The position numbers and the translations under genes are program-made. From assembly GCA_013152715.1 (NCBI GenBank), contig JAADFU010000097.1, positions 1,276-65,275 of the forward strand: a stretch of 64,000 nt of DNA, given 5' to 3'. Within the stretch, counting starts at the first letter, position 1. Each line of letters starts with the position of its first letter. The DNA is from Calditrichota bacterium (lineage in GTDB: Bacteria; Zhuqueibacterota; Zhuqueibacteria; Thermofontimicrobiales; Thermofontimicrobiaceae). Shown one piece after another: positions 440-45,141 of the stretch. Under the pieces are notes generated by a model. It worked only from the letters and a program-made list of their open reading frames with translations. It searched no databases and had not been told where the DNA came from.

Positions 440-2821
440 ATGAAATCGAGTAAATTGATGAAAGCTATTATTTTTTGGATATTTATTCTCTCTTTACCGG
501 CTTTCTCACAAAATTCAAAAGTTATTCTGAACCAATTAAAAAAGGAATATCAAAAACTCGATGAAATTTTTTCTCAAATGAAATTTTCAAATTCACAGAT
601 CCACAAGAAATTTCTTTCTCATACAAAATTTAATATTGATAGTTTAAAAAATGTGTTAAGAAAACAAGGAGTTGAAAACAGAGATATAGTATTCTGTATA
701 AATTCAATTGATTTAGACGATAATTTTGAATTGCTTGATTTTAATTTACATGATTGGAGTGAAGATACATATCGAGTTACAGCGAGATTGAGATGCAAAA
801 CAAAAATATATACAGATTTTGTAAAGCTAACATATCAATTTTATAAAGATAACGTACTTGTTGGCGCGGATTACACTTTTGTTGATTTTGTAACGTATGG
901 ATATTCTGGAATGTCACCTTATCAAACTTCATTTCTAACTGATTATGCTGAAAAATATGATTTTGATAATATTTTATTTTTTATATCTTATTATGAGGAG
1001 GATGGTTCAGATGATATATATTGGGATCAACTTATGAAATTAACCAATGTGGTGATTAATAAAGAAGATAACCTAAATCATTGGATTGGAACAGTGGAGA
1101 ATCGCTCAAATTATTCATTTACTTTCCCTAAAATTTTTGCAGCAATTTTTAAAAATGATAAAATGGTAGAACTGGATTATACATATTTGGATTTACTTTA
1201 TGCTCCATCTGATTCCATAAAAATTTTCTCGGTTACTGCTTACCCAACTGAAGCAGAACAAGTTTCTATTAAAAATTATTCAAATAAAGAACTACAAGAT
1301 AGATTTCTACCTCACACAACAGCAACATTTGACTCTTACATAAATTTACCAGATGAATATGATAGAATAAAATATTACCTTAATTACGCCTTATACTCAT
1401 TAGAAGGATCAGGAAATATCCCTCCAAATTTCCCCGTTTTTACGGATACTGCATATTCCACAGTGGAACGTACCAATTTTTCTCCGTCGATATTTTTGCT
1501 CGATCATGAGGGAGATTACTTAAATGTGGAATTAAATTGGGGTGATAATTCAGCAATCAATTGGTCTAACCCAATATTGTCAAATTCTGTAATATCATTT
1601 GATCACTCCTATACGGAATCTGACGTGTACTACATTATCGCTAAAGCAAAAGATGACTCTGGCGGCGTAACAGAATGGAACGATAGCATTAAAGTTAGTA
1701 TTTCCCCGATTGAAAATTTATCAATAATTCAAAAGCAACTTAAAAATGGAGAATTCAAAAAAAGTTATGATGACACTATAGAAGTCATGGGTGGCATTCC
1801 CCCTTACAAGTGGCAGATTATTGATGGCAATTTGCCAAATGGTGTAATTTTGAATTATAATACTGGAAGAATTTATGGTTCTCCTTTTGAATCAGGGAAA
1901 TACGATTTTATTGTTAAGGTTATTGATAATGGAGTGCCAACAGATGCTGACTCTGCTGAATTTTCATTAGAAATTTTTAATAATCCCCCAGCTATTGTTT
2001 CTTCAGATTCTATATCCGTTTATGAGCATCAGCAGATGACTTATACAATCAGAGCGATTGATCCTGATTCAAATGTCATTTTTTTCAACTTTAAGAATTT
2101 CCCAAGTTGGACAGAAATTAAAAATGACAGCAGTCTATATGGAATACCACCGGAAGGAGCAATTGACACCTCATTTCTCGCGATTGCCTCTGACGGAGAA
2201 CTTAGCGATTCCATAAATGTTAATGTAATTGTTATTCCTGTAAATGATCCGCCCAAAATAACCAATATTGAAGATTTTAGTTTTCTAAATACTGAAACTT
2301 ACAAGATTAATTTAGATACTTGTGCTACAGATCCAGATAATACCATTGAGTCTTTAGACTGGATTGTTATTTCAGCAGACTCAAATTTAATTATAGACAC
2401 TAACAACCATATTGTCCAATTTAGTGCATCAAATTGGTCTGGAACGGCAAAAGTAAAGTTTGTTGTTGAAGATTCCCTTGAAGGTAAAGATAGTTTGTCT
2501 GTCAATGTGACCGTCAATTACCCTTCTCAAATTTTATTACAAAAGGATAATCTCCCTGATACATATTTTCTTGGAAAAATTTATCCCAATCCGTTTAATT
2601 CAACTTTGTCAATATCTTTCGGTTTACCAGAGCCTACCAATGTTGCAATTGGCATCTACAATGTGATTGGTGAAAGAGTCGCTCAATTGGTGAATGGAAA
2701 AAATTATGCGGGCTATTACAAGATTAACTGGAATGCTAATGATAGACCTTCAGGAATATATATCATAATAATGAAAACCAAAAAATATGTTAAGAGTCAA
2801 AAGTGTCTTTTGATAAAGTAG
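440..2821 (+). CDS. Secreted cell-surface protein with cadherin-like/Ig-like repeats and a type-A T9SS C-terminal sorting domain.
   Basis: N-terminal signal peptide (MKSSKLMKAIIFWIFILSLPAFSQ). Repeated 'GGIPPYKWQIIDGNLPNGV...YGSP' putative-Ig segments. C-terminus YPNPFNSTLSISF...IYNVIGERV...SGIYIIIMKTKKYVKSQKCLLIK is a canonical T9SS CTD. RBS GGAGG before the ATG. Confidence 0.75.
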   Translation: MKSSKLMKAIIFWIFILSLPAFSQNSKVILNQLKKEYQKLDEIFSQMKFSNSQIHKKFLSHTKFNIDSLKNVLRKQGVENRDIVFCINSIDLDDNFELLDFNLHDWSEDTYRVTARLRCKTKIYTDFVKLTYQFYKDNVLVGADYTFVDFVTYGYSGMSPYQTSFLTDYAEKYDFDNILFFISYYEEDGSDDIYWDQLMKLTNVVINKEDNLNHWIGTVENRSNYSFTFPKIFAAIFKNDKMVELDYTYLDLLYAPSDSIKIFSVTAYPTEAEQVSIKNYSNKELQDRFLPHTTATFDSYINLPDEYDRIKYYLNYALYSLEGSGNIPPNFPVFTDTAYSTVERTNFSPSIFLLDHEGDYLNVELNWGDNSAINWSNPILSNSVISFDHSYTESDVYYIIAKAKDDSGGVTEWNDSIKVSISPIENLSIIQKQLKNGEFKKSYDDTIEVMGGIPPYKWQIIDGNLPNGVILNYNTGRIYGSPFESGKYDFIVKVIDNGVPTDADSAEFSLEIFNNPPAIVSSDSISVYEHQQMTYTIRAIDPDSNVIFFNFKNFPSWTEIKNDSSLYGIPPEGAIDTSFLAIASDGELSDSINVNVIVIPVNDPPKITNIEDFSFLNTETYKINLDTCATDPDNTIESLDWIVISADSNLIIDTNNHIVQFSASNWSGTAKVKFVVEDSLEGKDSLSVNVTVNYPSQILLQKDNLPDTYFLGKIYPNPFNSTLSISFGLPEPTNVAIGIYNVIGERVAQLVNGKNYAGYYKINWNANDRPSGIYIIIMKTKKYVKSQKCLLIK

Positions 2822-2862
2822 TATAAAGTTGTCAAAATCGGACTTTTTTAAGAGGTTTATGA

Positions 2863-4044
2863 ATGAAATTTAATAAAAAATTCGCATCCATTTTACTAAT
2901 TTCTTTCTTTGCTTCTATTACTTTCGCCCAGGAAAAACAACCTCCGTTAGAGCCCTATTTGCAATTTGTCGTCGAACCTTATTTGCAGCAATCCACGCAA
3001 ACGACAATGACCATCATGTGGGAAACAAATTTATTGTCAAATTCGATCGTGGAATACGGGCAGGAAATTCCTTTACAAAACAGGAAACAAAACGACAATC
3101 TAAAAACCATCCACGAAATGACTCTGACCGAACTTGCGCCGGAGACGAAATATTTTTACCGGGTAATTTCTCAAGACAAAAAAGGCGATTTCATTGCCAG
3201 CAAACTTTTCACTTTTCAGACTGCCGTGAAAGAAAAGTCTGCTTTCTCTTTTGTCGTATTTGGCGATTCACGGACTTACCCGGAGACATTCCAGCGCATT
3301 GCCGAGCGCGTTTTTGCTGAAAGACCCAATTTCGTGATTCATGTCGGAGACGTCGTTACTAACGGCACTAAAAAAGAACAGTGGGTTCGCGAGTACTTGC
3401 AGCCAGCATCTATTTTCATGAGTCGTTTTTCAACCTATGTGGCCATCGGAAATCACGAACGAAACGCCCACTGGTTTTATGATTACTCCAGCTATCCTGA
3501 CCCGGAAAATTACTATTCCTTCCGATACGGCAACGCGGACTTTTTCATCGTGGACACCAATGAAGACCTGAAGCCGGACAGTGAGCAGATGAAATGGTTA
3601 AAATACGGATTGGCACATTCCAAAGCCAAATGGAAATTCGTCGCGCACCATCATCCGCCCTATTCTTCAGATTCCAACGATTACGGTGATACGTTCAACG
3701 GGACAATTTCTCCTCTGGGTGATTTGAAAGTGAGGAAAGCGCTGGTGCCGCTCTACGAAAAATACGGCGTGGACATCGTCTGGGTGGGTCATATTCACAA
3801 TTACGAACGCACTTTTCCCATTCGAAATGGCAAAGTTGCGGATGGGAAAAAGGGTGTCATTTACATTCAAACCGGCGGCGGTGGCGCCGAATTGGAGCCG
3901 TACGCGCCCACGCGAAGCTGGTTCACGGCAAAATTGCTGAAAAATTGGCAGTATTGTTTGGTCACCATTCACGGCAATTCGTTGCGCATGATGGCTTACG
4001 ACATTGACGGAAAGATGTACGATTTTTTGGAAATAAAAAAGTGA
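2863..4044 (+). CDS. Secreted purple-acid-phosphatase-like metallophosphoesterase.
   Basis: Signal peptide present. FN3-like PAP N-domain (TKYFYRV). Metallophosphatase motifs GDSR, HVGDVV, GNHE, HHHPPYSS and GHIHNYER. Confidence 0.8.
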   Translation: MKFNKKFASILLISFFASITFAQEKQPPLEPYLQFVVEPYLQQSTQTTMTIMWETNLLSNSIVEYGQEIPLQNRKQNDNLKTIHEMTLTELAPETKYFYRVISQDKKGDFIASKLFTFQTAVKEKSAFSFVVFGDSRTYPETFQRIAERVFAERPNFVIHVGDVVTNGTKKEQWVREYLQPASIFMSRFSTYVAIGNHERNAHWFYDYSSYPDPENYYSFRYGNADFFIVDTNEDLKPDSEQMKWLKYGLAHSKAKWKFVAHHHPPYSSDSNDYGDTFNGTISPLGDLKVRKALVPLYEKYGVDIVWVGHIHNYERTFPIRNGKVADGKKGVIYIQTGGGGAELEPYAPTRSWFTAKLLKNWQYCLVTIHGNSLRMMAYDIDGKMYDFLEIKK

Positions 4045-4240
4045 TTCTTTGCCACAGGAACGCAGTTGGTTCGGAGATGAAATAAAAAATAACTGCGGAG
4101 AGAATTGGTAAAAACATAAACATGAACAGAGAATAAGGGGCGGGATTATAAAAATTAGTTAGCCGCTTTAAAAATCTGGCGCAAGCAAAACGCCAAATTT
4201 GTGCAAACAAAAAAACGGGAAAAATCCCGGGGAGGCACTC

Positions 4241-4969
4241 ATGAACAAGAGAATTCAAATTGTTGGAATTTTCACAGTAGCCCTCGTGTTTATCGCTTTC
4301 AGCTTACTCATGGCTGATGAAAATTCTTTCAAAAAAGCCGGCGGTTCTGGATATTTTTCCATTGGGATGTCAAAGCTCGATATTGGGGATCTTAATTCCA
4401 GATTGGCGGCAAAAGGCTATCCTGAATTTTCCGACAATTTCCTCTCTATGGGCGGCGGCGGGCACACTTTTAGGGATAAACTGGTGATTGGCGGCGAGGG
4501 ATTCGGGCTTACAGCGAGCGAAGAAAAATTTTCGCTGGGAAATACAGCGTACAAAGCGAATTTAGCCGTTGGTTACGGTTTTTTTGACATTGGCTACATG
4601 TTGTTTTCAAGTAAAAAAGTCAATATTTTTCCCATGTTAGGAATTGGCGGGGGCGGCGCATCGATAACCATTATCCAATCGGGCACAGCTTCTTTTGATG
4701 ATGTTTTGTCAAACCCGAAAAGAAACACGGAGCTTAGCAAAGGTGCGTTCCTGCTTAATTTGTCTTTGAACGCCGAATATTTTATTACCTTCAAGGAAAG
4801 CAAAGAAGGCGTCGGCGGTCTTCTTTTGGGCGTTCAGGCGGGCTACACAATAGCGCCTTTTACTTCTGACTGGAAAATTGACGAGTACGATGTAACCGGC
4901 GGCCCTGATTTTAACTTTAGCGGCCCTTACCTGAGAATAGAATTCGGCGGAGGTGGCATGGGACGATGA
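4241..4969 (+). CDS. Glycine-rich hypothetical secreted or membrane protein.
   Basis: ORF in track frame. ATG at 4241 preceded by GGGGAGG. N-terminal hydrophobic segment. Repeated GGGG tracts. No family recognised. Confidence 0.5.
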   Translation: MNKRIQIVGIFTVALVFIAFSLLMADENSFKKAGGSGYFSIGMSKLDIGDLNSRLAAKGYPEFSDNFLSMGGGGHTFRDKLVIGGEGFGLTASEEKFSLGNTAYKANLAVGYGFFDIGYMLFSSKKVNIFPMLGIGGGGASITIIQSGTASFDDVLSNPKRNTELSKGAFLLNLSLNAEYFITFKESKEGVGGLLLGVQAGYTIAPFTSDWKIDEYDVTGGPDFNFSGPYLRIEFGGGGMGR

Positions 4970-5245
4970 ATTTTGTAGTGACAAAATTCAATGTTAATTG
5001 GTCAGATTTACTCCGAACAAATAATCCCGCTCTTTTTTTTAAGACGAAGGCGTTAAAGTTTTTTTGAAAAGAGAAATTCATGAGTCCGGTCTGAAAAACT
5101 GGTTTTTTGGCTTTTTTAGAGCAAACACAGAAACGGATAAGCAATTATTTTTACAACATTTTATTAACATAAGCCTGGATTTTAGTTTCGATCCATTAAA
5201 AAAAGCACAAAAAAATAATCAATCGAAATTCTTAAGGAGAATTTT

Positions 5246-6308
5246 ATGGTTGGAATAGTAGGTTATGGCACACAAATACCGCGTTATCGGATTCGTGTCG
5301 AGGAAATTGCCAAAGTGTGGGGTTGCCAAAGTGTGGGGCGCAGATGCTGAATCTTATCGTCGGGGCTTGGGTTTGAAGCAAAAATCCATCCCGGCGCCAG
5401 ACGAAGACACAGCGACGCTCGCAGTGAATGCAGCTCGCAATGCCGTATTGCGTGCCGGAATTGATCCGGCGCAAATTGGCGCTATTTATGTGGGGAGTGA
5501 ATCGCATCCCTATGCAGTAAAACCCACGGGTACAATTGTCTCTGCTGCGCTTGGCATGACGCCGCATACCCACACTGCAGATTTGGAATTTGCCTGCAAA
5601 GCCGGTACTGAAGGGCTTTTTATCGCCATGCAGGAAGTAATCGCCGGAGCCATCGAATATGGCCTTGCCATCGGCGCAGATACATCTCAGGGCGCTCCGG
5701 CTGATGCATTAGAATATTCTGCCGCAGCCGGCGCAGCCGCGTTCGTAGTCGGAAATAAAGATTTAGTCGCCGAATTAGTAGATACGCACTGTTTTATGAC
5801 AGACACTCCTGATTTTTGGCGGCGGGAACACGCAAATTACCCGAAACACGGGGGGAGATTCACCGGAGTCCCGGCGTATTTCCGGCACGTCAAAGGGGCT
5901 GCCTGGGCGTTGATGGAAAAAGTAAATATGAAACCGGAAGATATCGATTATGTCATTTTTCACCAACCTAACGGGAAATTTCCGGTAACTGTGGCAAAAC
6001 AGTTGGGTTTTAAGGAAGACCAGTGGAAACACGGACTTTTGTCTCCTACTTTGGGAAACACTTACTCTGGCGCATCGCCCATGGGATTCGCTGCGACGCT
6101 GGATGTGGCAAAACCCGGCGAATTGATCATGTTGGTTTCTTTTGGATCGGGCGCTGGCAGTGACGCTTTTCTTTTTCGAGCCACAGACAGACTCAAGCAC
6201 GTGCGCGAAAAAGCGCCGTTAGTGCGAAAACAATTGGATGATCATATTATTCAGGTTGATTACGGCACTTACGCGAAATTCAGAAAGAAAATTTTGCGCG
6301 CCGAGTAA
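5246..6308 (+). pseudogene. Hydroxymethylglutaryl-CoA synthase (archaeal/bacterial MvaS type), interrupted by a +1 frameshift caused by a 16-bp tandem duplication.
   Basis: AAGGAGA RBS, then ATG at 5246 encoding [26 protein letters not shown], which terminates at a TGA near 5348. The remaining 347 aa (track ORF 5265-6308, ...[28 protein letters not shown]...[11 protein letters not shown]...) lie in the +1 frame. The junction is an exact TTGCCAAAGTGTGGGG x2 repeat at 5307-5338. Confidence 0.8.
5307..5338 (+). repeat. Perfect 16-bp tandem duplication (TTGCCAAAGTGTGGGG x2) inside the HMG-CoA synthase gene.
   Basis: Seen directly in the sequence. The track translation [16 protein letters not shown] confirms both copies are present. 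Confidence 0.85.
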
Positions 6309-6378
6309 TTTTACTTAAAAATGTGCTTGAGTCAATTATGACACGAGAAATTTAAACTCGTTTACAGGAGGTAAATCC

Positions 6379-7536
6379 ATGCGAGAAGTTGCAGTTATCG
6401 GAGTTGGCATGATAAAATGGGGCGAACTCTGGGAAAAATCAATCAGAGATTTATGTGTCGAAGCGGCGTTAAATTGTTTGGACGACGCTGGCGTGGATCG
6501 CTTTGATGCGATCACCGTGGGGACCATGTCCAGCGGATTGTTCGTGGGACAGGAACACCTTTCCGCGATGGTGGCAGATTATCTTGGAAATAAACACGCC
6601 GGAGCAATGCGCGTGGAGTCAGCATGTTCGTCCGGTGGACAGGCAGTGCGAAGTGCGTTTTTGGAAGTGGCGTCGGGCATGGCAGACTATGTGTTGGCGA
6701 TCGGCGTAGAAAAAATGACAGATGTCGATGGCGAGGAAGCGACTTATGCTCTGGCGACCGCAGCAGATCAGGAATGGGAAGTGTTTCACGGCGTGACTTT
6801 TCCCGGACTTTATGCGATGATGGCGCGTCTCCACATGGAACGTTATGGTACGACGCGGGAGCAGCTCGCAGAAGTCGCTGTAAAAAATCATCACAACGGC
6901 AGTTTGAATCCCAATGCGCAATTTCCGTTCGAAGTTACCCGCGAGCACGTGATGTCTTCGACAATGGTAGCGGACCCGCTGCGGTTGTTTGACTGTTCAC
7001 CTATTACCGACGGTGCGGCTGCTGTTTTGCTGGCTCCGTTGGAAGAAGCGAAAAAACTGAAAAAGCATGCTCCCGTGGTCATTTCCGGCGTTGGAAATGC
7101 AACGGATACTATCGCACTGGCGCAACGGAAAGACTTGCTCAAATTAGAAGCAGTTAACCTTTCCATCGAACGCGCGCTAAAAATGGCAAGTCTGAAAATT
7201 GAAGATGTTGATTTTGCCGAAGTGCACGATTGTTTTACAATCGCCGAGTTGATGATTATGGAGTCTATGGGAATTGTGAAAGAAGGAGAGAGCGGCCCGG
7301 CGGTGATGGATGGCATGACTGCTCTTGACGGAAAATTTCCCATCAATCCATCCGGTGGGCTAAAGGCAAAAGGCCATCCGGTAGGCGCGACTGGTGTGGC
7401 GCAGATTTGCGAAGTGGTTACGCAATTGCGCGGTGAAGCCGGAAAACGGCAAATCAAAAACGCGCGTATCGGAATGACACAAAACATGGGAGGCTCAGGC
7501 GCCAGTTCTGTTTCACATATTTTGGAGGTGAAATAA
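6379..7536 (+). CDS. Acetyl-CoA acetyltransferase (thiolase), SCP-x/archaeal type, partner of HMG-CoA synthase.
   Basis: [11 protein letters not shown]...SACSSGG (catalytic Cys block)...[11 protein letters not shown]...[17 protein letters not shown] 8 nt upstream. Confidence 0.85.
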
Positions 7537-7934
7537 TGCATATACCACGATTTTGGCGGGAAATACCGCGACGTTATCGAATGGAAGCAGAAAAATGTGT
7601 ACAATGCGGTCATATTGCATTCCCGGGACGATTGATCTGTCCGGAGTGCGGCAGCCGGCAATTTGAAAAAATAACTCTTTCCGGAAAAGGAAAATTGGAA
7701 ACATTCACAATTATTCGTGTAGCTCCTACTGGTTTTGGCGATCAGGTGCCTTATGCAGTTGGAATTGTCGAGTTGGACGAAGGCGTCCGGCTCATGGCAC
7801 AAATCACCGATTGCGATCCGAATCACCTGAAAACAGGAGACCGACTGATTGCCAAATTCCGTCGCATCAACGAGGAGGGAAAAACCGGGGGGATTATGTA
7901 CGGATACAAATTTGTGCCGGATGTGGGGGTGTGA
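7536..7934 (+). CDS. DUF35 OB-fold / zinc-ribbon protein, the scaffold subunit of the thiolase/HMG-CoA synthase complex.
   Basis: CVQCGH...CPECGS zinc ribbon plus an OB-fold. TAATG overlap with the thiolase stop gives translational coupling. The conserved HMGCS-thiolase-DUF35 order is as in archaea. Confidence 0.8.
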   Translation: MHIPRFWREIPRRYRMEAEKCVQCGHIAFPGRLICPECGSRQFEKITLSGKGKLETFTIIRVAPTGFGDQVPYAVGIVELDEGVRLMAQITDCDPNHLKTGDRLIAKFRRINEEGKTGGIMYGYKFVPDVGV

Positions 7935-7946
7935 TTTAATAGCACG

Positions 7947-7979
7947 CGGATGACACGGATGAAACGGATTTTCGCGGAT
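7947..7979. promoter_or_regulatory. Four phased CGGAT(G/T) direct repeats (9-10 bp spacing) upstream of the carboxylase genes.
   Basis: CGGAT at 7947, 7956, 7965 and 7975. Same motif family as 274-307. Confidence 0.4.
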
Positions 7980-8212
7980 TTACAAATTTAATCAAATAAT
8001 AATCTCTGGTAATCTGCGAACAGACGGCGTTGGAATCAAAAAAATATTTAAAACCACAACAAACACGAAGCGCACAAAGGATAAATTTGAATTTGTAATT
8101 GTCAATGTATGAATCTCTGTGTCTCCTTCGCGTCCTTTGTGGTTTTAAAATTGATTCGATAGCTCCGATCCGCGTCCCTCCGTGTGCTTATGAAGTAATT
8201 TCGAGGACAAAG

Positions 8213-9592
8213 ATGCCGACAAACCAAAAATTATTCAAACGAATTCTCATCGCCAACCGCGGCGAAGTGGCGCTGCGAATCATTAAGGCCTGTCAGGAAT
8301 CGGGGATTGAAACTGTTGCTGTTTACTCTGAAGCAGACGAGAATTCTCCCCATTTAGAGCAGGCGGATTTTACTGTTTGTATTGGACCTGGTCCCAGCAA
8401 TCAGAGTTATTTGAACAAAGAGGCAATCTTGCAGGCGGCGATAAATTCCGAGTGTCAGGCCGTCCATCCGGGGTTTGGCTTCATGGCTGAAGATGCTCTT
8501 TTTGCCTATATGTGCGAACAGAACAAACTCAGTTTTATAGGCCCTTCGGCAAATTCCATTCGATTGATGGGGAATAAATCTGTCGCAAAAGTGACAATGA
8601 AAAATGCCGGCTTGCCAACCATCCCCGGTAGTGACGGAAATGTAAAAGCTGTGAACGATGCGCTAACTGTCGCGGAAAAAATTGGCTATCCTGTGCTATT
8701 GAAAGCAACTGCCGGCGGCGGAGGCAAAGGTATTCGCCCCTGCAAAAATGAGGCGGAGCTGAAAAATCTGTTCGCGCAAGCGAGTATGGAGGCAGAAAAA
8801 GCCTTCGGCGATCCGGCGCTGTATCTGGAAAAATTGATTCAGCACGGCAGGCATATCGAATTTCAAATTTTAGCTGACTCTTACGGAAACGCCATCCATT
8901 TGGGAGAACGCGAGTGTTCTGTTCAACGAAAAAATCAAAAACTCATCGAAGAATCGCCTTCTCCGGCTGTGGATGACAATTTGCGAAAGAAAATGGGGGG
9001 GATCATCTGCGATGCTGTGGCAAAAATCGGTTATACTAATGCAGGGACAATTGAGTTTTTAATGGATGAAAATAAAAATCTCTATTTTATGGAAATGAAT
9101 ACCCGCTTGCAGGTGGAGCACCCGGTAACAGAGATGATCACCGGATTTGATATTGTGAAAGAGCAAATAAAAATTGCCGCGAATTATCCGCTTTCTTTGA
9201 CGCAAGACGATGTAAATTTTTCGGGTCACGCCATCGAGTGCCGCATCAATGCTGAAGATCCGCAGAATAATTTTTTACCATCGCCGGGCCGGATTACTGA
9301 ATTTGAAATTCCCCAAAACGAGGGTCCGGGAAAAATTCGTGTGGACACACACGTTCGCACAGGATATGAGATTCCCACTTATTATGATTCCATGATTTGC
9401 AAAATAATTGCCTGGGGAGAAACGCGCCAGAATGCAATCGAAACTATGATCAATGCATTGAAAAAATCTTCGATCAAGGGGATTAAAACTACCATTCCTT
9501 TGCATCTGGAGATTTTGTCGCATCCGGATTTTATCAGCGGAAATTATCACACGGCATGGTTAATGAATACGTTTTTTAACGAGGAAAAATAA
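8213..9592 (+). CDS. Biotin carboxylase subunit of an acyl-CoA carboxylase.
   Basis: ILIANRGEVALRI, ATP-grasp motifs, GGGGKG, EMNTRLQVEHPVTE. I place the start at the internal ATG (MPTNQK...), not the track's upstream 8099. Confidence 0.8.
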   Translation: MPTNQKLFKRILIANRGEVALRIIKACQESGIETVAVYSEADENSPHLEQADFTVCIGPGPSNQSYLNKEAILQAAINSECQAVHPGFGFMAEDALFAYMCEQNKLSFIGPSANSIRLMGNKSVAKVTMKNAGLPTIPGSDGNVKAVNDALTVAEKIGYPVLLKATAGGGGKGIRPCKNEAELKNLFAQASMEAEKAFGDPALYLEKLIQHGRHIEFQILADSYGNAIHLGERECSVQRKNQKLIEESPSPAVDDNLRKKMGGIICDAVAKIGYTNAGTIEFLMDENKNLYFMEMNTRLQVEHPVTEMITGFDIVKEQIKIAANYPLSLTQDDVNFSGHAIECRINAEDPQNNFLPSPGRITEFEIPQNEGPGKIRVDTHVRTGYEIPTYYDSMICKIIAWGETRQNAIETMINALKKSSIKGIKTTIPLHLEILSHPDFISGNYHTAWLMNTFFNEEK

Positions 9593-9636
9593 TTTTTAAT
9601 TTTATCGAAACAGGAAGGCAATAGGAGCAGCAGCCA

Positions 9637-11364
9637 ATGGCAAAAGTGATCTTGGAGCGAATTGGTTCGACCATTTCTAATTTTATGGGAGTTGAGGATT
9701 TCAACAAGAATCTGAAAGAGAATGAAAATCTCAATGAGAGATATTTAAAGGCGAGGGAGGAAATTCGCGCTGGTTGGGGGAAAACCTATGTGGAGCGAGT
9801 TCACAGAAAAGGCAAGTTAACCACGTGGGAGCGCATCGAAGCTTTGAAAGATGAGGGCAGCAAAGTTTTCCCCATCGGCACTTTTGTCAACTATGGCATT
9901 GAATTTTTTGACGGAAAGACAAATCGCACCTCGCCCGCGGCAGGTGTAATCACCGCATTCGTGAAAATTGAAGGCAGATACACGGTTGTGATTGCCAATG
10001 ATAACACAGTTGCTTCCGGCGCCTGGTGGCCTTTGACGCCGGAGAAAATTGAACGGGCGCAGGAAATAGCACTGCGGCTGCGGATACCCGTGGTCTATTT
10101 GATCGATTGCAGCGGGCTCTTTTTGCCGGAACAGGCGAAAACATTCCCCGGGAAAACCGGTGCCGGGTATATTTTCAAAATGAATGCTTTGCTCAGCGCC
10201 CAGCAAGTACCGCAAATTGCCGGTGTTTTCGGAGATTGCATTGCCGGCGGCGGATACATGCCAATCATCAGCGATGTGGTTTACATGACTGAACAAGCCT
10301 ACATGGTGATCGCCGGTGCCGCATTGGTAAAGGGGGGCAAAAGTCAAAAAATCACGTCGCTGGACATCGGCGGCCCGGATATCCATGTGCATCTTTCCAA
10401 TTGCGCGGATTTTCGCGTGCCCGATGATCGGGCAGCATTGAAAAAAATTCGTTCTGAAATTGCAAAGTTGCCGACTCCGGCGAATGACTATTATCGCTAC
10501 GGACAGGAACCAGCGCCTCCTCATTTTTCATCAGATGAAATTCCTGGAATTTTGCCTCCTGACCATCGCGTGACCTATGACATGCGTCAGATCATTGCCC
10601 GTATTCTGGATCATAGCTTGTTCTGGGAGCTTTTCCCTCATAAAGGGAAGGAAATCATCTGCGGCGTCGGCAGAATCAATGGAAATTATGTGGGAATTAT
10701 TGCTAACAACGCTTTTCTCACGGATCACCCGGTGCATCGCAGTACACGCCGTCCCGGCGGAATTCTCTATCGCGACGGCATCGCTAAAATGACCAGCTTC
10801 GTGCGCGCCTGTAACGACGATGGAATCCCGCTTATCTGGCTGCAGGACGTGGCGGGATTTGACATCGGACTCGAAGCGGAAAAAATGGGATTGTTGGGTT
10901 ACGGTTCCGATCTTTTGTATTCCATTTCCACTTCCACTAATCCAGTGATTACCGTGCTGCTGCGCAAAGCTTCTGGCGCTGGCTACTATGCAATGAACGG
11001 CAGACCCTACGAGCCGATTGTACAATTTTCCACGCCGTTGACGAGGCTGGCTGTAATGGAAGGCAGAACTCTGGCGATTGGTGCTTATCGCACGAAATTG
11101 GACGATGATTTTAATATTATTTTTACGAATAAGGAAGAATACGAAGCAATTAAGCGAGGGATGGAAGGAGTTGAGCAGCGAATCACGAAAGATATGGATC
11201 CAATTTTATCGGCGCGACAGTTGGATACAGACGAAATTATTCTGCTTCACGAATTGCGGCCTTATTTGGAAACGATGATTGACATGAGCTATCAAAGTAT
11301 TGGCTATCGTCGCGTGAAAAATCCGCGCATCTGGTCGATGCATGATATTAAAGCACTTTATTGA
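9637..11364 (+). CDS. Acyl-CoA carboxylase carboxyltransferase subunit (methylcrotonyl-/propionyl-CoA carboxylase beta-like).
   Basis: 575 aa with both CoA carboxyltransferase N- and C-domains (..GGAYMP.., ..GRINGN..AN...GG). Sits between the biotin carboxylase and BCCP genes. Confidence 0.75.
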
Positions 11365-11978
11365 CGAAACCAAAATCTCTGACAGCAACCAAAGTCGAAG
11401 AGGAAGAGATGATTGCTCTGATTGAAAAAGAAGATTCCCAAATTCGAATTTTATCTCCTGCGGTTGGATTTTATTCTGAAATGCCGCGAGAAAAAACTTT
11501 TGTCACCGGCGGCGCAATGATCGGCAAACTGACTGTATTGAATACGAGTTTTTTTATCTATTTGCCGGAAAATGTGAGTGGAATTGTGAGTTACAGCGAA
11601 TCTCCGGATCGAATTGTCAACGTCGGCTATCGCGATGAACTATTTCGACTGACAGCGGAACAGACGGAGATCGTCCGGCAGATTTCGGGCGCTGAAAAAA
11701 TTGAGAGCAATGATGAATTTGCAGAAAACGGTTTTGTGGTGCGCGCATTTACCACGGGTATTTTTTATCGTAGACCTTCTCCTGACGCCGCGCCTTATGT
11801 GGAAGAAGGTCAGCAAATTGAAAAAGGAAAAGTTCTGGGCTTAATTGAAGTAATGAAGACGTTCAATCACATCATTTTTCAAGGCACGGAAAATTCAAAT
11901 AGTGGAGTAGTCAAAAAAATTCTGGTCCAGGACGGCCAGGAGGTGAAGTTAGATCAGCCGTTGTTTGTTATTAGTTAG
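11361..11978 (+). CDS. Biotin carboxyl carrier protein (biotinyl domain). Start uncertain: TTG at 11361 or ATG at 11409.
   Basis: C-terminal biotinyl-lysine motif [10 protein letters not shown] (the EAMKM family). The TTGA start overlaps the upstream stop. Confidence 0.6.
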
Positions 11979-12061
11979 TGGACACTAAAAATTGAGTGGG
12001 GTTCTGGAAACTAATTTTAATTCTGACTTTTTTATTTTAAAACCTATCATGGGAGGAATCC

Positions 12062-13228
12062 ATGTCGCTAAATTTTGACCTTCCCGAAGAAGCGAACATG
12101 ATTCGCGATACGGTACGTGAGTTCGCCGAGCAAGTGATCAGACCAAAGGCAAAAGAATTGGACGACGCAGAGGAGTTTTCGCCGGAAATCACGCGTCAAT
12201 TGGGCGAGTTGGGATTATTTGGGTTTTGCATTCCTGAAGAATATGGCGGGAACGGCTTTGGATATATTCCTTACATTATCGCTGTAGAAGAATTAGCACG
12301 AGTCGATGGTTCTCAGGCGGCTACGGTGGCGGCTCATAATTCGTTGGGCATCGGGCCTATTTATATTTTTGGAAATGAAGATCAAAAAAGAAAATATTTG
12401 CCTCAGCTCACTACCGGAGAAAAGGTCTGGGCGTTTGGCCTTACGGAACCCAATGCAGGTTCTGATGCTGGCGGGACAAAGACTGTCGCCAAAAAGGAAA
12501 AGGACGGCTGGCGCATTAATGGTTCGAAAATATTTATCACCAACGGTTCAGGAGAAGCCTCGCTGGGAGTGACGGTGCAGGCAGTGACCGGCACCCGTCC
12601 CGATGGGAAAAAAGAATACACTTGCTTTCTGGTCGAACAAGGCACGCCCGGTTTCACGGCAAAAACGATGCATGAAAAAATGATGTGGCGCTCGTCTATT
12701 ACCTCGGAGTTGTTTTTCGAAGACTGCCTTGTGCCGGAAGAAAGCATGCTTGGCAAAAAAGGCGAGGGGTTTCGTCAAATGCTGGACACGCTGGATCGCG
12801 GCAGGCTTTCTATCGCAGCGATGGGACTTGGGTGTGCTCAGGGCGCCTATGAATTAGCGCTGAAATACGCCAAAGAACGAAAACAATTCGGAAAAGCAAT
12901 CTCCACGTTTCAAGCCAATGCTTTCAAATTAGCTGATATGGCAACGGAAATCGAAGCCGCGCGCTATCTTCTCTACCGCGCCGCGTGGCTGTGCGATCAA
13001 AAACGGGACGAATACAAAAAATTAGCGTCCATGGCAAAATTGTACTGCTCAGAAGTGGCGCATCGCTGTGTCAATCAGGCGCTTCAAATTCACGGCGGCT
13101 ACGGTTTGATGAAAGAGTACGATATCGAGCGATTTTATCGCGACCAGCGCTTGCTGGAAATCGGCGAAGGAACCTCTGAAATTTTACGATTGGTCATTTC
13201 CAGAAGAATTGGGTGTTATGATGTTTGA
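12062..13228 (+). CDS. Acyl-CoA dehydrogenase. By context, isovaleryl-CoA / short-branched-chain acyl-CoA dehydrogenase.
   Basis: ACAD N/M/C domains with GLTEPNAGSD and QIHGGYG motifs. GGAGG-like RBS. Confidence 0.8.
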   Translation: MSLNFDLPEEANMIRDTVREFAEQVIRPKAKELDDAEEFSPEITRQLGELGLFGFCIPEEYGGNGFGYIPYIIAVEELARVDGSQAATVAAHNSLGIGPIYIFGNEDQKRKYLPQLTTGEKVWAFGLTEPNAGSDAGGTKTVAKKEKDGWRINGSKIFITNGSGEASLGVTVQAVTGTRPDGKKEYTCFLVEQGTPGFTAKTMHEKMMWRSSITSELFFEDCLVPEESMLGKKGEGFRQMLDTLDRGRLSIAAMGLGCAQGAYELALKYAKERKQFGKAISTFQANAFKLADMATEIEAARYLLYRAAWLCDQKRDEYKKLASMAKLYCSEVAHRCVNQALQIHGGYGLMKEYDIERFYRDQRLLEIGEGTSEILRLVISRRIGCYDV

Positions 13229-13263
13229 AAAATTAGAACCCAGTTATTTTCGAAAATAGTTTT

Positions 13264-13336
13264 TTCAATCTAGACATCCCCCCTGTCCCCCCTTCAAAGG
13301 GGGGAACTCTAAAAGTCCCCCTTTGAAGGGGGATTT
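13264..13336. terminator. GC-rich nested palindromic element (two CCCCCC-loop-GGGGGG hairpins inside an outer ACATCCCCC/GGGGGATGT stem). Likely an intrinsic terminator or attenuator between the acyl-CoA dehydrogenase and enoyl-CoA hydratase genes.
   Basis: Inverted repeats 13264-13272 / 13328-13336, 13277-13282 / 13289-13294 and 13307-13311 / 13318-13322. A related C-rich motif lies at ~47178. Confidence 0.45.
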
Positions 13337-13391
13337 AGGGGGATGTTCAAAGCTAGTCTGAACAAGCAAAAACATAAATTTTGAGGCTTTT

Positions 13392-14180
13392 ATGCAAAAA
13401 AAATTTCAGACCATTCGTTATCATATCGAAAATAAAGCAATCACCATTTGGCTGAACAGGCCTGATGTGCACAATGCCTTTAACTCGACCATGCTGAAAG
13501 AATTGTCGGAAATTCTGGAATGGATCGCAGGATCGGACGAGGTGCGCGTGGTCATTTTTACCGGAGAGGGAAAATCTTTTTCAGCCGGCGCTGATTTGAA
13601 TTGGATGAAAGAGATCATCAATTATACTTACGAAGAAAATTTGCAGGATTCTGAGCTTATTTCTCAAGTGTTTTATTTGATTTACACCTGTCCCAAGCCA
13701 GTGATTGCTGCCATAAACGGCGCTGCTGTCGGAGGCGGTATGGGATTTGTCGCCGCGTCAGACATCGTCATTGCTTCTGAACGGGCGAAATTCAGTCTGT
13801 CTGAAGTCAAAATCGGACTGGTTCCTTCCTGCATTTCTCCGTATCTGTTCAAAAAGGTCGGCGAAGGAGCGCTAAAAGAATTATTCATTTCAGGAATGCG
13901 TTTTGGCCCGGACAAGGCGCTAAAGATTAATTTGATCAATTATGTTGTTGAACATGAAAAGCTGCTCGATTTTGCGCAGGAGAAAGCCCGAGAATTGCTG
14001 GTCTGCGGTCCCCAAGCCATTGCTATTTGTAAAAAATTATTTTTCGAAGTTCAGGAAATGGATTTGCAAACAGCTTATCACTACACAGCGGATTTGATTG
14101 CAAAAATGAGAATTTCCGACGAAGCACAGGAAGGCATGCACGCATTTTTGGAAAAGAGAAAACCCAATTGGCATCCCTAA
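13392..14180 (+). CDS. Enoyl-CoA hydratase/isomerase (crotonase family). By context, 3-methylglutaconyl-CoA hydratase-like.
   Basis: Crotonase fold motifs (AAINGAAVGGG, oxyanion hole region). 262 aa. Confidence 0.75.
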   Translation: MQKKFQTIRYHIENKAITIWLNRPDVHNAFNSTMLKELSEILEWIAGSDEVRVVIFTGEGKSFSAGADLNWMKEIINYTYEENLQDSELISQVFYLIYTCPKPVIAAINGAAVGGGMGFVAASDIVIASERAKFSLSEVKIGLVPSCISPYLFKKVGEGALKELFISGMRFGPDKALKINLINYVVEHEKLLDFAQEKARELLVCGPQAIAICKKLFFEVQEMDLQTAYHYTADLIAKMRISDEAQEGMHAFLEKRKPNWHP

Positions 14181-14263
14181 AAACTTCATTATAAATCGGA
14201 AGAGGGGTCTAAAAAACAGGTGAATTATTTTTTAACAAACTCTAATTTAAAGAGGAGGATCGT

Positions 14264-14926
14264 ATGATCAAAAAGGCCAATCAAGCATTATCAGCAGTAC
14301 TCTTCATCACATTTATCTTTTTTCTCTCTACGGCTAACGCTCAACAAGCTCCGGTTGCACAGGATGTTGGTCTTTTGGATGTGGAATACTCAAGCTTGAC
14401 CAAGCAAGTCTGTCAGGATTGTCATGGCACCTCTCTCGCCGATACCCATCATGAAACGCAAATTGCTCAATCCGGGCAGTGTGTCACCTGTCATAGTGTC
14501 TCAACCACTCCCGGACAAATGGGGGTTGTTCTGCAAAGGGACTGTATGAAATGTCATACAGAGACTCCGCATCATAAGACCGAAGCGGCGCTTAATAACG
14601 AATGTACTAATTGCCACGATAGTCCGGGGCTGAATGATTACAGCACTTCTGTTGCGACCTACCCTGTTTCTATGGTTACTCCGGCTGTGGCAAATTGTAA
14701 AAAATGCCATGATAACGGAGAGGCTGCAGGGCTTCAGGTTGTAGATTTCAAGGAAACTCATCATGGAATTTCCATTGATAATTGTGACATCTGCCATGAA
14801 GGAACCGAAACTAAAACAACAAACATTCGGATCTGCGAAAGATGCCATAACCAGGAAGTCATTCACCAGGTCGCTCCTCATATTGAAGCACAAAATTGTG
14901 TTGTATGCCATCTGACTAAAAAATAA
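14264..14926 (+). CDS. Secreted octaheme c-type cytochrome (small multiheme cytochrome).
   Basis: Signal peptide MIKKANQALSAVLFITFIFFLSTANA. Eight CxxCH motifs (CQDCH, CVTCH, CMKCH, CTNCH, CKKCH, CDICH, CERCH, CVVCH) in 220 aa. AGGAGG RBS. Confidence 0.85.
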   Translation: MIKKANQALSAVLFITFIFFLSTANAQQAPVAQDVGLLDVEYSSLTKQVCQDCHGTSLADTHHETQIAQSGQCVTCHSVSTTPGQMGVVLQRDCMKCHTETPHHKTEAALNNECTNCHDSPGLNDYSTSVATYPVSMVTPAVANCKKCHDNGEAAGLQVVDFKETHHGISIDNCDICHEGTETKTTNIRICERCHNQEVIHQVAPHIEAQNCVVCHLTKK

Positions 14927-15458
14927 CGCATGGCGTGCTCATGAAATTTGAGTGAGACGAGCAAATTTTAACCCTGGCGGGGCGCCAGTCACGAATTTAA
15001 TTATAAAAATTAATCAATTCATTACCGATTCACCTGTTTCGTCCGTGCTGGCACCCGCTGGATTTTTAATTTTTTCTTAATTTTTGGTAACAGCGTTTTT
15101 TTTGGTAATTTTACTCACGAAATTTTTGTGAATTTCTCTGTTATCCGCCAAATGTTGAACGAATTTTAATAAAAGCGAGGAGGATATCAGGCTATTTCGG
15201 AATTAGAACCGACTTTATTCTTTGGTAAAATGAAGACTGATTAAATCTACATTAGCCACTATCTCGTCCTTTCGGGACTTAGAAGAGTCTGGTGCAAAAG
15301 CTGAGTTTCAAAAGAACGAGATACGGGAAATTGTCAGAACATTTTTTATTATAGAATACCAAAATTAAAATTGAATAGACCGCAACCTTCGCATCGAAGA
15401 AAAACCAGAATTTATTAAGTCATTTTTTGACTTTAAAGATAAACCATGAGGAGGAAAA

Positions 15459-16601
15459 ATGGATTATTTGTTGACCGAAGAGCAAAAAATGCTCCGAGAA
15501 ATGGTATCCAAATTTGCCAAGGAAGAAATTGCGCCTGTGGCTTCTGAAAATGAGGATAAGGAGATATATCCGGAAAATATTGTACAACAATTGGGCGAAT
15601 TGGGGATAATGGGCATTGCTTATCCTGAGGAGTACGGCGGCGCCGGGATGGATTACGTTTCTTACATGCTGGCTGTGGAAGCAATTTCTCAGTATTGCGC
15701 ATCGACAGGAGTAATTGTCTCTGCGCATTCGTCTCTGGCAGTGGATCCCATTTTTCGTTTTGGCACTGAAGAACAGAAAAAGAAATATCTGCCTGACATG
15801 TGTTCCGGGAAAAAGATCGGTTGCCATGCGCTGACTGAACCAGGTGCGGGATCCGATGCAGGCGCGGTAAAAACAACAGCGAAATTAGAGGGCGATAAAT
15901 GGGTGCTTAATGGTACAAAACACTTCATCACCAATGGCGCGAATGCGGATGTAGCAGTGGTCTTTGCTTCCACTGACATGGAACAAAAACACCACGGCAT
16001 CAGTGCTTTTATCGTGGAAAAGGGCACTCCCGGATTTCGCGTGGGGAAATTAGAAAATAAATTAGGCATCCGCGCATCGACGACAGCGGAATTGATTTTC
16101 GAAGATTGCGCCATTCCCAAAGAAAATTTGCTCGGCGAGCTCAATAAAGGTTTTAAAATAGCCATGATCACGCTGGATGGCGGCAGACTGGGAATAGCGT
16201 CACAAGCGCTGGGGATTGCCAAGGCGGCAATTGAGGATTCGGTTGCTTACGCTAAAGAGCGTCAGCAATTTGGCCAGCCCATTGCTAAATTTCAGGCGAT
16301 TCAGTGGATGATTGCCAATATGACAACTGAATATGAAGCAGCCTGGCTTTTGACCTATCGGGGATCTGTGATGAAAGATAAAGGCCTGCGCTACTCAAAA
16401 GAGGCGGCAATGGCAAAGTTAAAAGCTTCGGAGACAGCATCTTTTTGTGCCAACAAAGCAATACAAATTCACGGTGGCTACGGTTTCATCAAAGATTTCC
16501 CTGTGGAACGTTATCTCAGGGATGCCAAAATTACGGAAATTTACGAGGGCACCAATGAAATTATGCGAATTGTGATTTCTGCAAATATGTTGAGAGATTA
16601 G
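15459..16601 (+). CDS. Acyl-CoA dehydrogenase (butyryl-/isobutyryl-CoA dehydrogenase-like).
   Basis: ACAD domains with ALTEPGAGSD and QIHGGYG. GAGGAGG RBS. Lies upstream of icmF. Confidence 0.8.
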   Translation: MDYLLTEEQKMLREMVSKFAKEEIAPVASENEDKEIYPENIVQQLGELGIMGIAYPEEYGGAGMDYVSYMLAVEAISQYCASTGVIVSAHSSLAVDPIFRFGTEEQKKKYLPDMCSGKKIGCHALTEPGAGSDAGAVKTTAKLEGDKWVLNGTKHFITNGANADVAVVFASTDMEQKHHGISAFIVEKGTPGFRVGKLENKLGIRASTTAELIFEDCAIPKENLLGELNKGFKIAMITLDGGRLGIASQALGIAKAAIEDSVAYAKERQQFGQPIAKFQAIQWMIANMTTEYEAAWLLTYRGSVMKDKGLRYSKEAAMAKLKASETASFCANKAIQIHGGYGFIKDFPVERYLRDAKITEIYEGTNEIMRIVISANMLRD

Positions 16602-16684: not shown

Positions 16685-19600
16685 TTGAACCACATAAGAG
16701 TCATCACAGCAGCGGCGTTATTCGACGGGCATGACGTTTCCATAAATATTTTCAGAAAATTGATGCAAAAACGCGGCGCGGAAGTCATCCATTTAGGTCA
16801 TAATCGCTCGGTGCGTGAAGTAGTTACTACTGCCATTCAGGAAGATGCCGACGCCATACTTGTCAGTTCTTATCAGGGCGGACACAATGAATTTTTCCGC
16901 TACATGGTGGACAAACTCAAAGAATCGCACGCGGAAAGAATTATGGTCTTCGGCGGCGGCGGCGGCGTGATTTTGCCGTCGGAAATTGAAGCCCTGGAAA
17001 CCTACGGCGTGGAACGATTGTACCATGCGCTCGACGGACAAAAATTGGGCATCGACGGTATTGCTGACGACATCATCAAACGCATTCACAAACGAAAATC
17101 AGCGGAAAAGCAGTTGTTCGGCAAATTCATTGGCGAAAAAGTAATTGAGGGAAATTCACCTAAAAATCATTTGACGATTGCGCAGCAGATTTCATTTTTT
17201 GAGGATCACATCGGCGAAAAACAAATCACGACGCCAATTTTAGAAAAATTGCAGCAGCACGACAAAGGAAAATCTGTAGTGCTCGGCGTTACCGGTACTG
17301 GCGGCAGCGGCAAAAGCTCGCTCATCGACGAACTGGTGAATCGTTTCCTGAAAATTGTGCCGGACATGACCATCGGAATTCTGACTGTGGACCCGTCAAA
17401 GCGAATTTCCGGCGGCGCGCTGTTAGGCGACCGCATTCGCTACAACAACATTTATGACGATCGCGTTTATTTTCGCAGCTTTGCCACACGGGAGTCTGCC
17501 AGTGAAATCAGTCTCGCGCTCACCGACGCCATCGCCGTGCTCAAAAGCTGTGGCTTTGACGTCATCTTTGTGGAAACCAGCGGCATTGGTCAGGGCGACA
17601 GTCAGGCGGTGGATGTGAGTGATTTTTCCGCTTATGTGATGACTTCGGAGTACGGCGCCCCGTCGCAGTTGGATAAAATCGACATGCTGGAAATTGCCAA
17701 CTACATTGTGATCAACAAATTTGAAAAGCCGGGCTCTGAAGACGCCATGCGCGAAGTGATGATCAATTACATTCGCAATCATGGCGTGAAAGTGTCGCAT
17801 CGCGAATCTCTGTTTGAACTCGATTTGCCGGTTTACGGAACCAGCAGTAACCAATTCAACAATCACGGCGTCAACCGTCTTTTTAAAGATTTGCTTGATT
17901 TAATTTTGAAGCAAAATAAGAAAAAATATCAGATAAAAGAAAATCTGCTGAAAATTTTACCGACAAAATTGGAGTTCGAGTACGGCCTCATCCACAGCCG
18001 ACGCGTGAATTATTTGACGGAAATTGCCGACACCGTGCGTAAATATCACGAGCGCGCCAGGCAGGAATCGGAGCTTGCCGGTAAATGTTACAGTTTGAAA
18101 AAAAGCATGGATTTGATCGAAGATGCAGCCATAAAAGAAACGCTACACCAAAAATTTGATGAGCTTTGGAAAAAATTGTCCCAGCAGTCAAAAGATTTTC
18201 TGGAAAATTGGCTTGAATTGAAAGAGCGCTATCAGCAGAAAAAATTTCGCTACAGAGTGCGGCATCGGGAAATTGAAGTGGATTTATTCAATCGCTCGCT
18301 TTCCGGCTTGAATATCCCGAAAGTAACGCTGCCGAATTTTTCCGATTGGGAAGAGTTGCTCAAATTTTATTACAAAGAAAATTTGCCGGGCTGTTTTCCT
18401 TACACCGGTGCTGTTTATCCCTTTCGCCGCACCGGAGAGGATCCGCGACGCCAATTTGCTGGTGAAGGCAGCGCAAAAAGAACGAACAAGCGTTTTCATT
18501 ATTTGACCAGAGATGACCGCGCCAAACGGCTTTCCGTGGCGTTCGACGGCATCACGCTCTACGGCGAAGATCCGGCGACGGAACCGGACATTTACGGCAA
18601 AATCGGTGAAAGCGGCGTAAGCATTTGTACCATCGATGACATGGATCAACTGCTGGAAGGCTTCGATCAAACCGATGCGTTGACTTCAGTGTCCATGACC
18701 ATCAATGCCCCGGCGCCAATTATGTTGGCGATGTATTTCATGGTTGCGTTTCGCCGGGAATTGAAAAAAGCAGAAGCGCAAGGCAGAAAATTGTCCTCTG
18801 AAGAAAAAGAAAAATTAAAAATTGAAACATTCCGCAAATTGCGCGGCACTGTTCAGGCAGACATTTTGAAAGAAGACCAGGGGCAGAACACCTGCATTTT
18901 TTCCGTCGATTTTGCCATGAAATTGATTGGCGATGTGCAGGAATATTTTTCTAAAAATGATATTCGAAATTATTATTCAATCAGTATCAGCGGCTATCAC
19001 ATCGCTGAAGCCGGCGCCAATCCGATCACGCAGTTGGCTTTTACCCTGGCGAATGGCTTTACTTATGTGGAGTATTTTTTAAATCGCGGTTTAAAAATCG
19101 ATCAGTTTGCGCCGAATTTGTCCTTCTTTTTCAGCAATGGAATGGAACCGGAATATGCCGTCATCGGACGCGTTGCCCGGCGAATCTGGGCTATTGCCAT
19201 CAGAGATTTGTATGGCGGAAATGAGCGGAGTCAAAAGTTAAAATACCACATTCAAACATCCGGTCGGTCTCTACACGCACAGGAAATTGAATTAAACGAC
19301 ATCCGCACGACGCTACAAGCCTTGATGGCTTATTACGATAATTGCAATTCTTTGCACACCAACTCCTATGACGAAGCGATCACTACGCCGACTGAGGAAT
19401 CAGTGCGCCGCTCAGTAGCGATTCAGATGATTCTTGCCAATGAGATGGGAATGGTGAAAAACGAAAATCCCAATCAAGGATCTTTTATCATTGAACAGCT
19501 TACCGATTTGGTGGAAGAGGCGATATTGAATGAATTTCATCGTATTTCACGACGCGGTGGCGTGCTTGGAGCGATGGAAAAGCAATACCAACGCTCGAAA

Positions 19601-19942
19601 ATCCAGGAAGAGTCTCTCTATTATGAGGATTTGAAGCAGTCCGGCGAATATCCGATTATAGGCGTGAATAAATTCGTGCGTGAGACAGGGGAGACGCCGT
19701 ACGACAATATGAATATTACCCGCGCCAGCGATCAGGAAAAGCAAGGAATTCTTGAAAATTTGACATCGTTCCAGTCAGAAAATCAGTCCGGAGCAAAAGA
19801 GGCGCTGGAACGACTGCGCGAAACAGCGCTGGCGAACGGGAATGTTTTTGAGGAACTGCTCAATACTGTCGAGCGCGCATCTCTGGGACAAATTACGCAT
19901 GTGTTGTACGAAGTTGGCGGGAAATATCGGAGAGGAATCTGA
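16685..19942 (+). CDS. icmF: Fused isobutyryl-CoA mutase IcmF (B12-binding domain + MeaB-like G-protein + mutase substrate domain).
   Basis: N-terminus ...[34 protein letters not shown]...VSSYQGGH matches the IcmF B12 domain. P-loop [12 protein letters not shown] of the MeaB GTPase. ~500-aa C-terminal mutase domain. TTG start with AAGGAGG 6 nt upstream. Confidence 0.85.
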   Translation: [1085 protein letters not shown]

Positions 19943-44906: not shown

Positions 44907-45141
44907 TATGATCCTCCTCATTTTGATATTTGTATTTCGAGTTTCAGATTTCGGGTTACGAGTTTCGCGTTTTGGGTTTCGAATTAGGAATTTCTTTTTG
45001 CTTTGTTTTTTTGTCGGCCAAATGAAATTCGATGCCGTAAAGCGTTTTGATTCTCCACCCGAAGCAATGAGCCGTCTTATTTAAACGCAGTCGGCGCTTC
45101 ACAACTCTCAACCGTAAACTCTGAATTATGAACTCAAAAAA

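Follow-up and report, generated by a model that had tools for sequence, protein, structure and literature searches.

A perfect 16-nt tandem duplication interrupts the HMG-CoA synthase (HMGCS) gene in a metagenome-assembled genome (MAG) of a Calditrichota bacterium. We suggest that this is probably a real and very recent mutation, carried by the genotype that dominates the sampled population. The repeat unit, TTGCCAAAGTGTGGGG, occurs twice in perfect tandem on the forward strand of the window, by which we mean the whole 64-kb stretch of DNA that was analyzed. Copy 1 is located at 5307–5322 and copy 2 at 5323–5338, and the sequence context is GAGGAAA-TTGCCAAAGTGTGGGG-TTGCCAAAGTGTGGGG-CGCAGATG.

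The duplication and the HMGCS reading frame

Tandem Repeats Finder reports the duplication at 5307–5338 with a period of 16, 2.0 copies, and 100% matches, and direct reading of the DNA gives the same result, so the exact 16-bp direct repeat described in the first-pass annotation is correct in both its coordinates and its sequence. It is the sole perfect tandem duplication with a unit of at least 8 nt in the window, and no perfect tandem duplication with a unit of 12–40 nt was seen in 20 shuffles. A search of the window for further matches to the 16-mer with up to two mismatches found none, where 0.03 would be expected by chance. The ends of the repeat show no microhomology, with A5306 differing from the last G of the unit and C5339 from its first T. 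Furthermore, no hairpin or quasi-palindrome that might promote duplication was found, and the single-copy region folds no better than shuffles (DNA folding z-score, +1.26). Copy 1 extends from the second nucleotide of codon 21 to the second nucleotide of codon 26 and encodes I-A-K-V-W-G. Copy 2 is identical to copy 1 but is present in no relative, and its 16 nt give a net shift of +1 in the reading frame. The repeat is head to tail and internal to the coding sequence, its length is not divisible by 3, and its excision restores the ORF, which is the pattern of a loss-of-function duplication.

The gene opens as the first-pass annotation had described, with a ribosome-binding site and an authentic N-terminus. 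A Shine–Dalgarno-like AAGGAG at 5234–5239 on the forward strand lies 6 nt 5′ of the ATG at 5246 and is identical in five loci of relatives (L001–L003, L084, and L085, see below), and residues 1–29 of the protein are nearly invariant in 120 homologs. The split into a stub and a remainder in the +1 frame was also described correctly. The stub ORF, at 5246–5350 on the forward strand, encodes 34 residues, of which 1–26 are the authentic N-terminus and match that of chain 6ESQ_I, while residues 27–34, CQSVGRRC, are out of frame and are followed by TGA at 5348–5350. The remainder, at 5322–6308 on the forward strand, encodes residues 21–348 of the repaired protein in the +1 frame and carries the motifs GSESHPY, FACKAG, and FHQPNG. 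The disruption comes after codon 26, and the other 322 codons are in the +1 frame, including the motifs of Glu80, Cys112, and His234, which we take to be the catalytic residues. These 322 codons have neither a credible start nor a ribosome-binding site of their own. The open part of the +1 frame extends over 5265–6308, and the mechanical ORF from the ATG at 5265 begins with 20 out-of-frame residues. This ORF is the source of the 347-aa length given in the first pass, and as a gene call (P0001) it was found only in the JGI source; the continuation in the +1 frame stands, but the repaired protein has 348 aa. When one repeat copy is deleted, a 1047-nt ORF encoding 348 aa is obtained, and so the earlier claim that this deletion restores a single full-length HMGCS holds as well. 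In the window as it stands, there is no single uninterrupted HMGCS frame. As read from the DNA, the gene is a disrupted member of its family, either a pseudogene or an artifact, and not a functional one.

What would such an allele produce? The extra 16 nt throw the frame out after codon 26, so that translation from the normal start stops after 34 codons. The only in-frame ATG, at 5265, is 25 nt from the ribosome-binding site, and initiation there would replace the invariant first β-strand with unrelated residues. The allele would then be null for HMGCS. The thiolase and the DUF35 protein encoded downstream could still be translated from the ribosome-binding site of the thiolase gene, and the strain would lose the condensation of acetoacetyl-CoA with acetyl-CoA to HMG-CoA that heads the conserved acyl-CoA cluster.

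The repaired protein scores above the curated NCBIfam equivalog cut-offs of both HMGCS models, with 526.9 bits for NF003274 (cut-off 244; residues 1–345 on model positions 2–345 of 347) and 517.6 bits, end to end, for TIGR00748 (cut-off 353.35), in agreement with the identity assigned in the first pass. Its best solved relative is chain 6ESQ_I (E = 8e-135, residues 2–344 aligned to 4–347), and GSE80SHPY, FAC112KAG, and FH234QPNG are identical to that chain in the alignment. Judged by these matches, the 348-aa protein is an archaeal-type HMG-CoA synthase. It resembles the HMGCS of the Methanothermococcus thermolithotrophicus thiolase/HMGCS/DUF35 complex (PDB 6ESQ/6ET9) in the end-to-end alignment, the near-identical N-terminus, and the three motifs. 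However, the host is a bacterium, known from a Calditrichota MAG, and not an archaeon, and the HMGCS frame in the window is broken.

The numbering of the GenBank records bears on how the gene has been annotated. Between GXO74_08105 (NOZ61632) and GXO74_08150 (NOZ61640), there are eight intervening genes and seven protein accessions (NOZ61633 to NOZ61639), and the thiolase has the accession NOZ61633, directly after NOZ61632 of the upstream gene. Thus, HMGCS would have a locus tag and no protein, like the frameshifted pseudogenes that PGAP flags in MAGs. We infer from this numbering that PGAP has already annotated HMGCS as a pseudogene in GenBank.

Single-copy relatives and the age of the break

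The 90% cluster of the 347-aa gene call has one other member, P0121, an intact 348-aa protein without the frameshifted N-terminus. P0121, from a sister strain, is encoded by three ENA contigs that represent at least two samples, and over 8 kb these contigs share 98.3% identity with the window. The sister-strain loci (L001, L002, and L003) have one copy of the repeat and an intact 348-aa HMGCS, and the alignment with the window shows a gap of 16 columns. The same gap, a single repeat copy, and an intact HMGCS are found in the next relative, with 86% protein identity, which is represented by one GenBank MAG and one Logan assembly (L084 and L085). The comparison with orthologous loci, which the first-pass annotation had proposed as a check, thus gives a single copy in each of the five independent assemblies of relatives.

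Among the best 120 homologs, 110 are exactly 348 aa long, and no indel is seen within the first 45 residues of any of the 120. Residues 1–29 are nearly invariant in this set, and the duplicated IAKVWG is 94–100% conserved, which makes it unlikely that the protein would tolerate an insertion there. The single copy in five assemblies of relatives, together with the lack of decay in the gene, argues that the duplication is derived and very young. On this comparison, the two-copy state appears to be derived, to be confined to the contig of the window, and to lie within the most conserved part of the protein. Both repeat copies carry a window-specific T at a site where the relatives have C, which argues that the extra copy was made from the window strain's own allele.

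How old is the break? Against the sister strain, the repaired HMGCS has a dN/dS of 0.044, with 21 synonymous and 3 nonsynonymous differences, and the other indels over 8 kb are intergenic only. Given a dN/dS of 0.04 and the intact thiolase and DUF35 genes, the break must be either very recent or not real. A long-standing pseudogene is ruled out by the dN/dS and the intact neighbors.

The two-copy allele has been seen in a single assembly; JGI and NCBI list the same 66.8-kb contig, to which exact look-ups assign the neighboring proteins (NOZ61630 to NOZ61643 in GenBank). In a collection of 15 billion proteins, neither the repaired protein nor the 34-aa stub had an exact match. The JGI metagenome contigs contained no match to an exact 35-mer spanning the first repeat copy, in which either strain allele was accepted, and none to an exact 31-mer just downstream of the repeat. 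When genome contigs were scanned, the relatives among the matches listed had at most 74% identity, and none of them was of the window species. Exact matches to the strain-specific neighbor proteins were found on the window's contig alone.

Mutation, heterogeneity, or artifact

The first-pass annotation had put forward a real mutation, heterogeneity in the population, and an assembly artifact without preferring one of them. A real duplication of this kind may have arisen by replication slippage or by a template-switch type of error. Inactivating spontaneous tandem duplications within ORFs are documented for pneumococcal capsule genes (cited in PMC4022640, its references 28 and 33). As in the window, the duplications described there in cap3A, cap8E (wchA), and tts are perfect and internal, have a length that is not a multiple of 3, and truncate the product, and loss of one copy restores it. 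However, the switching in the pneumococcus was demonstrated by experiment and recurs under selection, whereas the window is one consensus from one metagenome. Perfect tandem duplications are intrinsically unstable, and HMGCS would thus be restored if one copy were lost precisely.

If the mutation is real, it need not be fixed. It is possible, although we regard it as doubtful, that one-copy and two-copy alleles coexist in the population. Such heterogeneity would be consistent with the ease with which perfect tandem duplications arise and revert, with cap3A and cap8E as examples cited in PMC4022640, and with the extreme youth that the mutation must have. The mosaic of the contig against the sister strain also suggests that there are several related genotypes in these sediments. 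However, no second assembly of the window strain was found in the collections searched, and the consensus sequence carries no allele frequencies.

Identity to the sister strain in this mosaic is 82–84% over 2411–4050, about 90% over 5221–5390, and about 99.2% over 5390–13000; further 3′, it is 97% over 13389–14173 and 94.6% over 15449–16600. The 242-aa gene at 4241–4969 could not be aligned to the sister strain by blastn. The changes in identity over 2400–16600, relative to L001 and L002, may reflect either homologous recombination tracts or a strain-chimeric contig. The duplication is contained in the stretch at 5221–5390, which is about 10% divergent from the sister strain, and the mosaic boundary at about 5390 lies about 50–80 nt downstream of the duplication and not at it. 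The idea that two strain haplotypes were chimerically joined at the repeat was rejected, given that the two sides of the repeat diverge from the sister strain to a similar degree and that the switch to 99% identity occurs at about 5390.

Could the DNA of the organism have one copy and an intact HMGCS, with the second copy introduced by the assembly, the consensus, or the library? An untrimmed join of contig ends that overlap by 16 nt, a step of local assembly or gap closing, or a chimeric molecule in the library, for example, could lead to this result, and we consider such an origin unlikely. Between a real knockout mutation and a sequencing or assembly error, the error is the less likely. An artifact would be in line with the origin of the two-copy allele in a single assembly and with an operon and window that are clean except for the broken HMGCS, and the lack of decay in HMGCS, with intact downstream genes, is equally expected of an artifact. 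The boundary at about 5390 is close by, and assembly graphs branch at such positions when related strains co-occur. An untrimmed end-to-end join of contigs would, moreover, give a perfect tandem repeat without microhomology. On the other hand, both flanks of the junction are of the same divergent haplotype, the haplotype switch is not at the repeat, and the 64 kb contain no Ns and no further trace of joins or duplications. The general behavior of assemblers would also argue against an artifact. In a de Bruijn assembly with k > 16, the reads must hold the junction k-mers, and bubble-popping keeps the better-covered path. A k or k − 1 of 16 is unusual for widely used metagenome assemblers. Coding sequence makes up 92% of the window, in which no other gene is obviously split, and so it is not an error-ridden assembly. 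General assembly sloppiness was rejected for this lack of further split genes and for the lack of any other indel in coding sequence.

Is the repeat a functional device? The proposal would be either that HMGCS has evolved a reversible ON/OFF phase variation or that a programmed +1 frameshift within 5265–5350 yields a full-length enzyme with a 5-residue insertion, and we find the two, taken jointly, highly improbable. Formally, the repeat is precisely excisable, and a +1 shift at TGC-TGA (5345–5350) would rejoin the frame. However, nothing of this arrangement is conserved, since all of the relatives have one copy and an uninterrupted gene, and the first 45 residues of the 120 homologs are free of indels. 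The relatives have exactly one copy and the window two, and the orthologs have no repeat tract that would predispose the gene to switching; an evolved phase-variable locus was rejected for want of such a tract. In the 5265–5350 overlap, there is no recognizable slippery site and no stable local structure (z-score +1.26, folded as DNA). Programmed frameshifting was rejected on these two grounds and because the frame is uninterrupted in the five assemblies of relatives and in the best 120 homologs.

There is also a very slight chance that a real two-copy allele coexists with revertants and serves the sediment Calditrichota population as a natural OFF switch for HMG-CoA synthesis that can be reversed. 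If that were true, it would mean metabolic heterogeneity in a conserved acetyl-CoA/HMG-CoA/isovaleryl-CoA gene cluster. We continue to favor a real and very recent duplication as the explanation for the broken frame.

The HMGCS–thiolase–DUF35 trio and its surroundings

The thiolase gene, at 6379–7536 on the forward strand, is intact and of the acetyl-CoA acetyltransferase type, with 538.1 bits for NF004720 (cut-off 420) and matches to Pfam Thiolase_N and Thiolase_C_1. With NF053570 (AcCoTHIOL_METTL), it scores 519.3 bits, and the cut-off of that model is 600. The gene follows HMGCS by 70 nt, has its own AGGAGG site, and is 99% identical to that of L001. The DUF35-type gene, at 7536–7934 on the forward strand, is also intact and encodes a protein with a zinc ribbon and an OB fold (PF01796, PF12172). 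Its start overlaps the thiolase stop in TAATG, as expected from the first-pass description of these two genes as translationally coupled.

The order HMGCS, thiolase, DUF35 is also found in L001, L002, L084, and L085 and in about 74 of 80 more distant loci. With genes for the three subunits side by side in this order, the locus resembles the 6ESQ-type system. On the 3′ side of DUF35, there are genes for a biotin carboxylase, a carboxyltransferase, BCCP, an acyl-CoA dehydrogenase, and an enoyl-CoA hydratase of the methylglutaconyl/carboxygeranoyl-CoA hydratase type, followed at the end of the cluster by those for a small multihaem cytochrome, a second acyl-CoA dehydrogenase, and IcmF. Neither an HMG-CoA lyase nor an HMG-CoA reductase was found in the annotated part of the window.

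The archaeal-type trio occurs in many bacterial phyla, among them Zixibacteria, Aminicenantes, Eisenbacteria, Ignavibacteria, Acidobacteriota, and Bacteroidota. In the roughly 5 kb 3′ of the trio, a carboxyltransferase gene is present at 49 of 85 loci, an enoyl-CoA hydratase gene at 47, a biotin carboxylase gene at 43, and an acyl-CoA dehydrogenase gene at 24. In contrast to 6ESQ/6ET9, the bacterial trio usually stands before carboxylase, hydratase, and acyl-CoA dehydrogenase genes and not before mevalonate-pathway genes. Together, the trio and these genes look like a conserved route that joins acetyl-CoA, HMG-CoA, and isovaleryl-CoA and that could run in either direction. A search of the literature for a bacterial cluster of HMGCS with methylcrotonyl-CoA carboxylase found nothing specific.

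The composition of the cluster varies among the relatives. The 220-aa multihaem cytochrome (c7/MtrC-like), encoded at 14264–14926 and followed by a 532-nt gap to 15459, lies inside the acyl-CoA operon; its gene is present in L084 and absent in L001 and L002, where the hydratase gene is directly before that of the second acyl-CoA dehydrogenase. An IS200-type Y1 transposase is found between DUF35 and biotin carboxylase in L084 (5333–5902) and L085 (4874–5443) and is absent in the window and in L001. Two genes of the cluster have TTG starts. One is BCCP, at 11361–11978, and the other is IcmF, a fused isobutyryl-CoA mutase/GTPase at 16685–19942, an intact ORF of 1085 aa that starts after AAGGAGGAG and scores 1592.7 bits for NF045497. 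Between GXO74_08150 (NOZ61640) and GXO74_08165 (NOZ61642), there are two genes and one accession (NOZ61641, acyl-CoA dehydrogenase), and IcmF seems to have no GenBank protein accession. Directly after IcmF, at the end of the acyl-CoA cluster, is a DUF6125 protein (20023–20538; PF19620, 251.8 bits), with homologs of at least 90% identity in other assemblies.

Elsewhere in the window, there are type IX secretion features at 440–2821, 20567–23638, and 30240–31268, namely two large Por_Secre_tail proteins, one of which is a purple-acid-phosphatase-like metallophosphoesterase, and a PorV homolog. These features fit a host of the FCB group, such as Calditrichota. An imperfect 7-nt tandem array of TTTCGAG at 44935–44982, with about 6.9 copies and 69% matches, also scores as a 21-nt period and sits in a 220-nt gap between two minus-strand ORFs. 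The scan of the window for promoters and terminators gave counts at chance level, and no tRNA or Rfam match was found in it.

The duplication itself is an ordinary and apparently already flagged frameshift in an otherwise conserved and intact operon, and it belongs to a known class of inactivating and reverting mutations. If it is real, the strain cannot make HMG-CoA by this route, and metabolic reconstructions from the MAG should omit the step; if it is an artifact, HMGCS counts as intact. Either way, the repaired 348-aa sequence is the right one for comparative work. A perfect short tandem duplication in a MAG needs a check at the level of the reads before a pseudogene is called. The more interesting biology is in the surroundings of the broken gene, where carboxylase, hydratase, and acyl-CoA dehydrogenase genes accompany the trio in many bacterial phyla.
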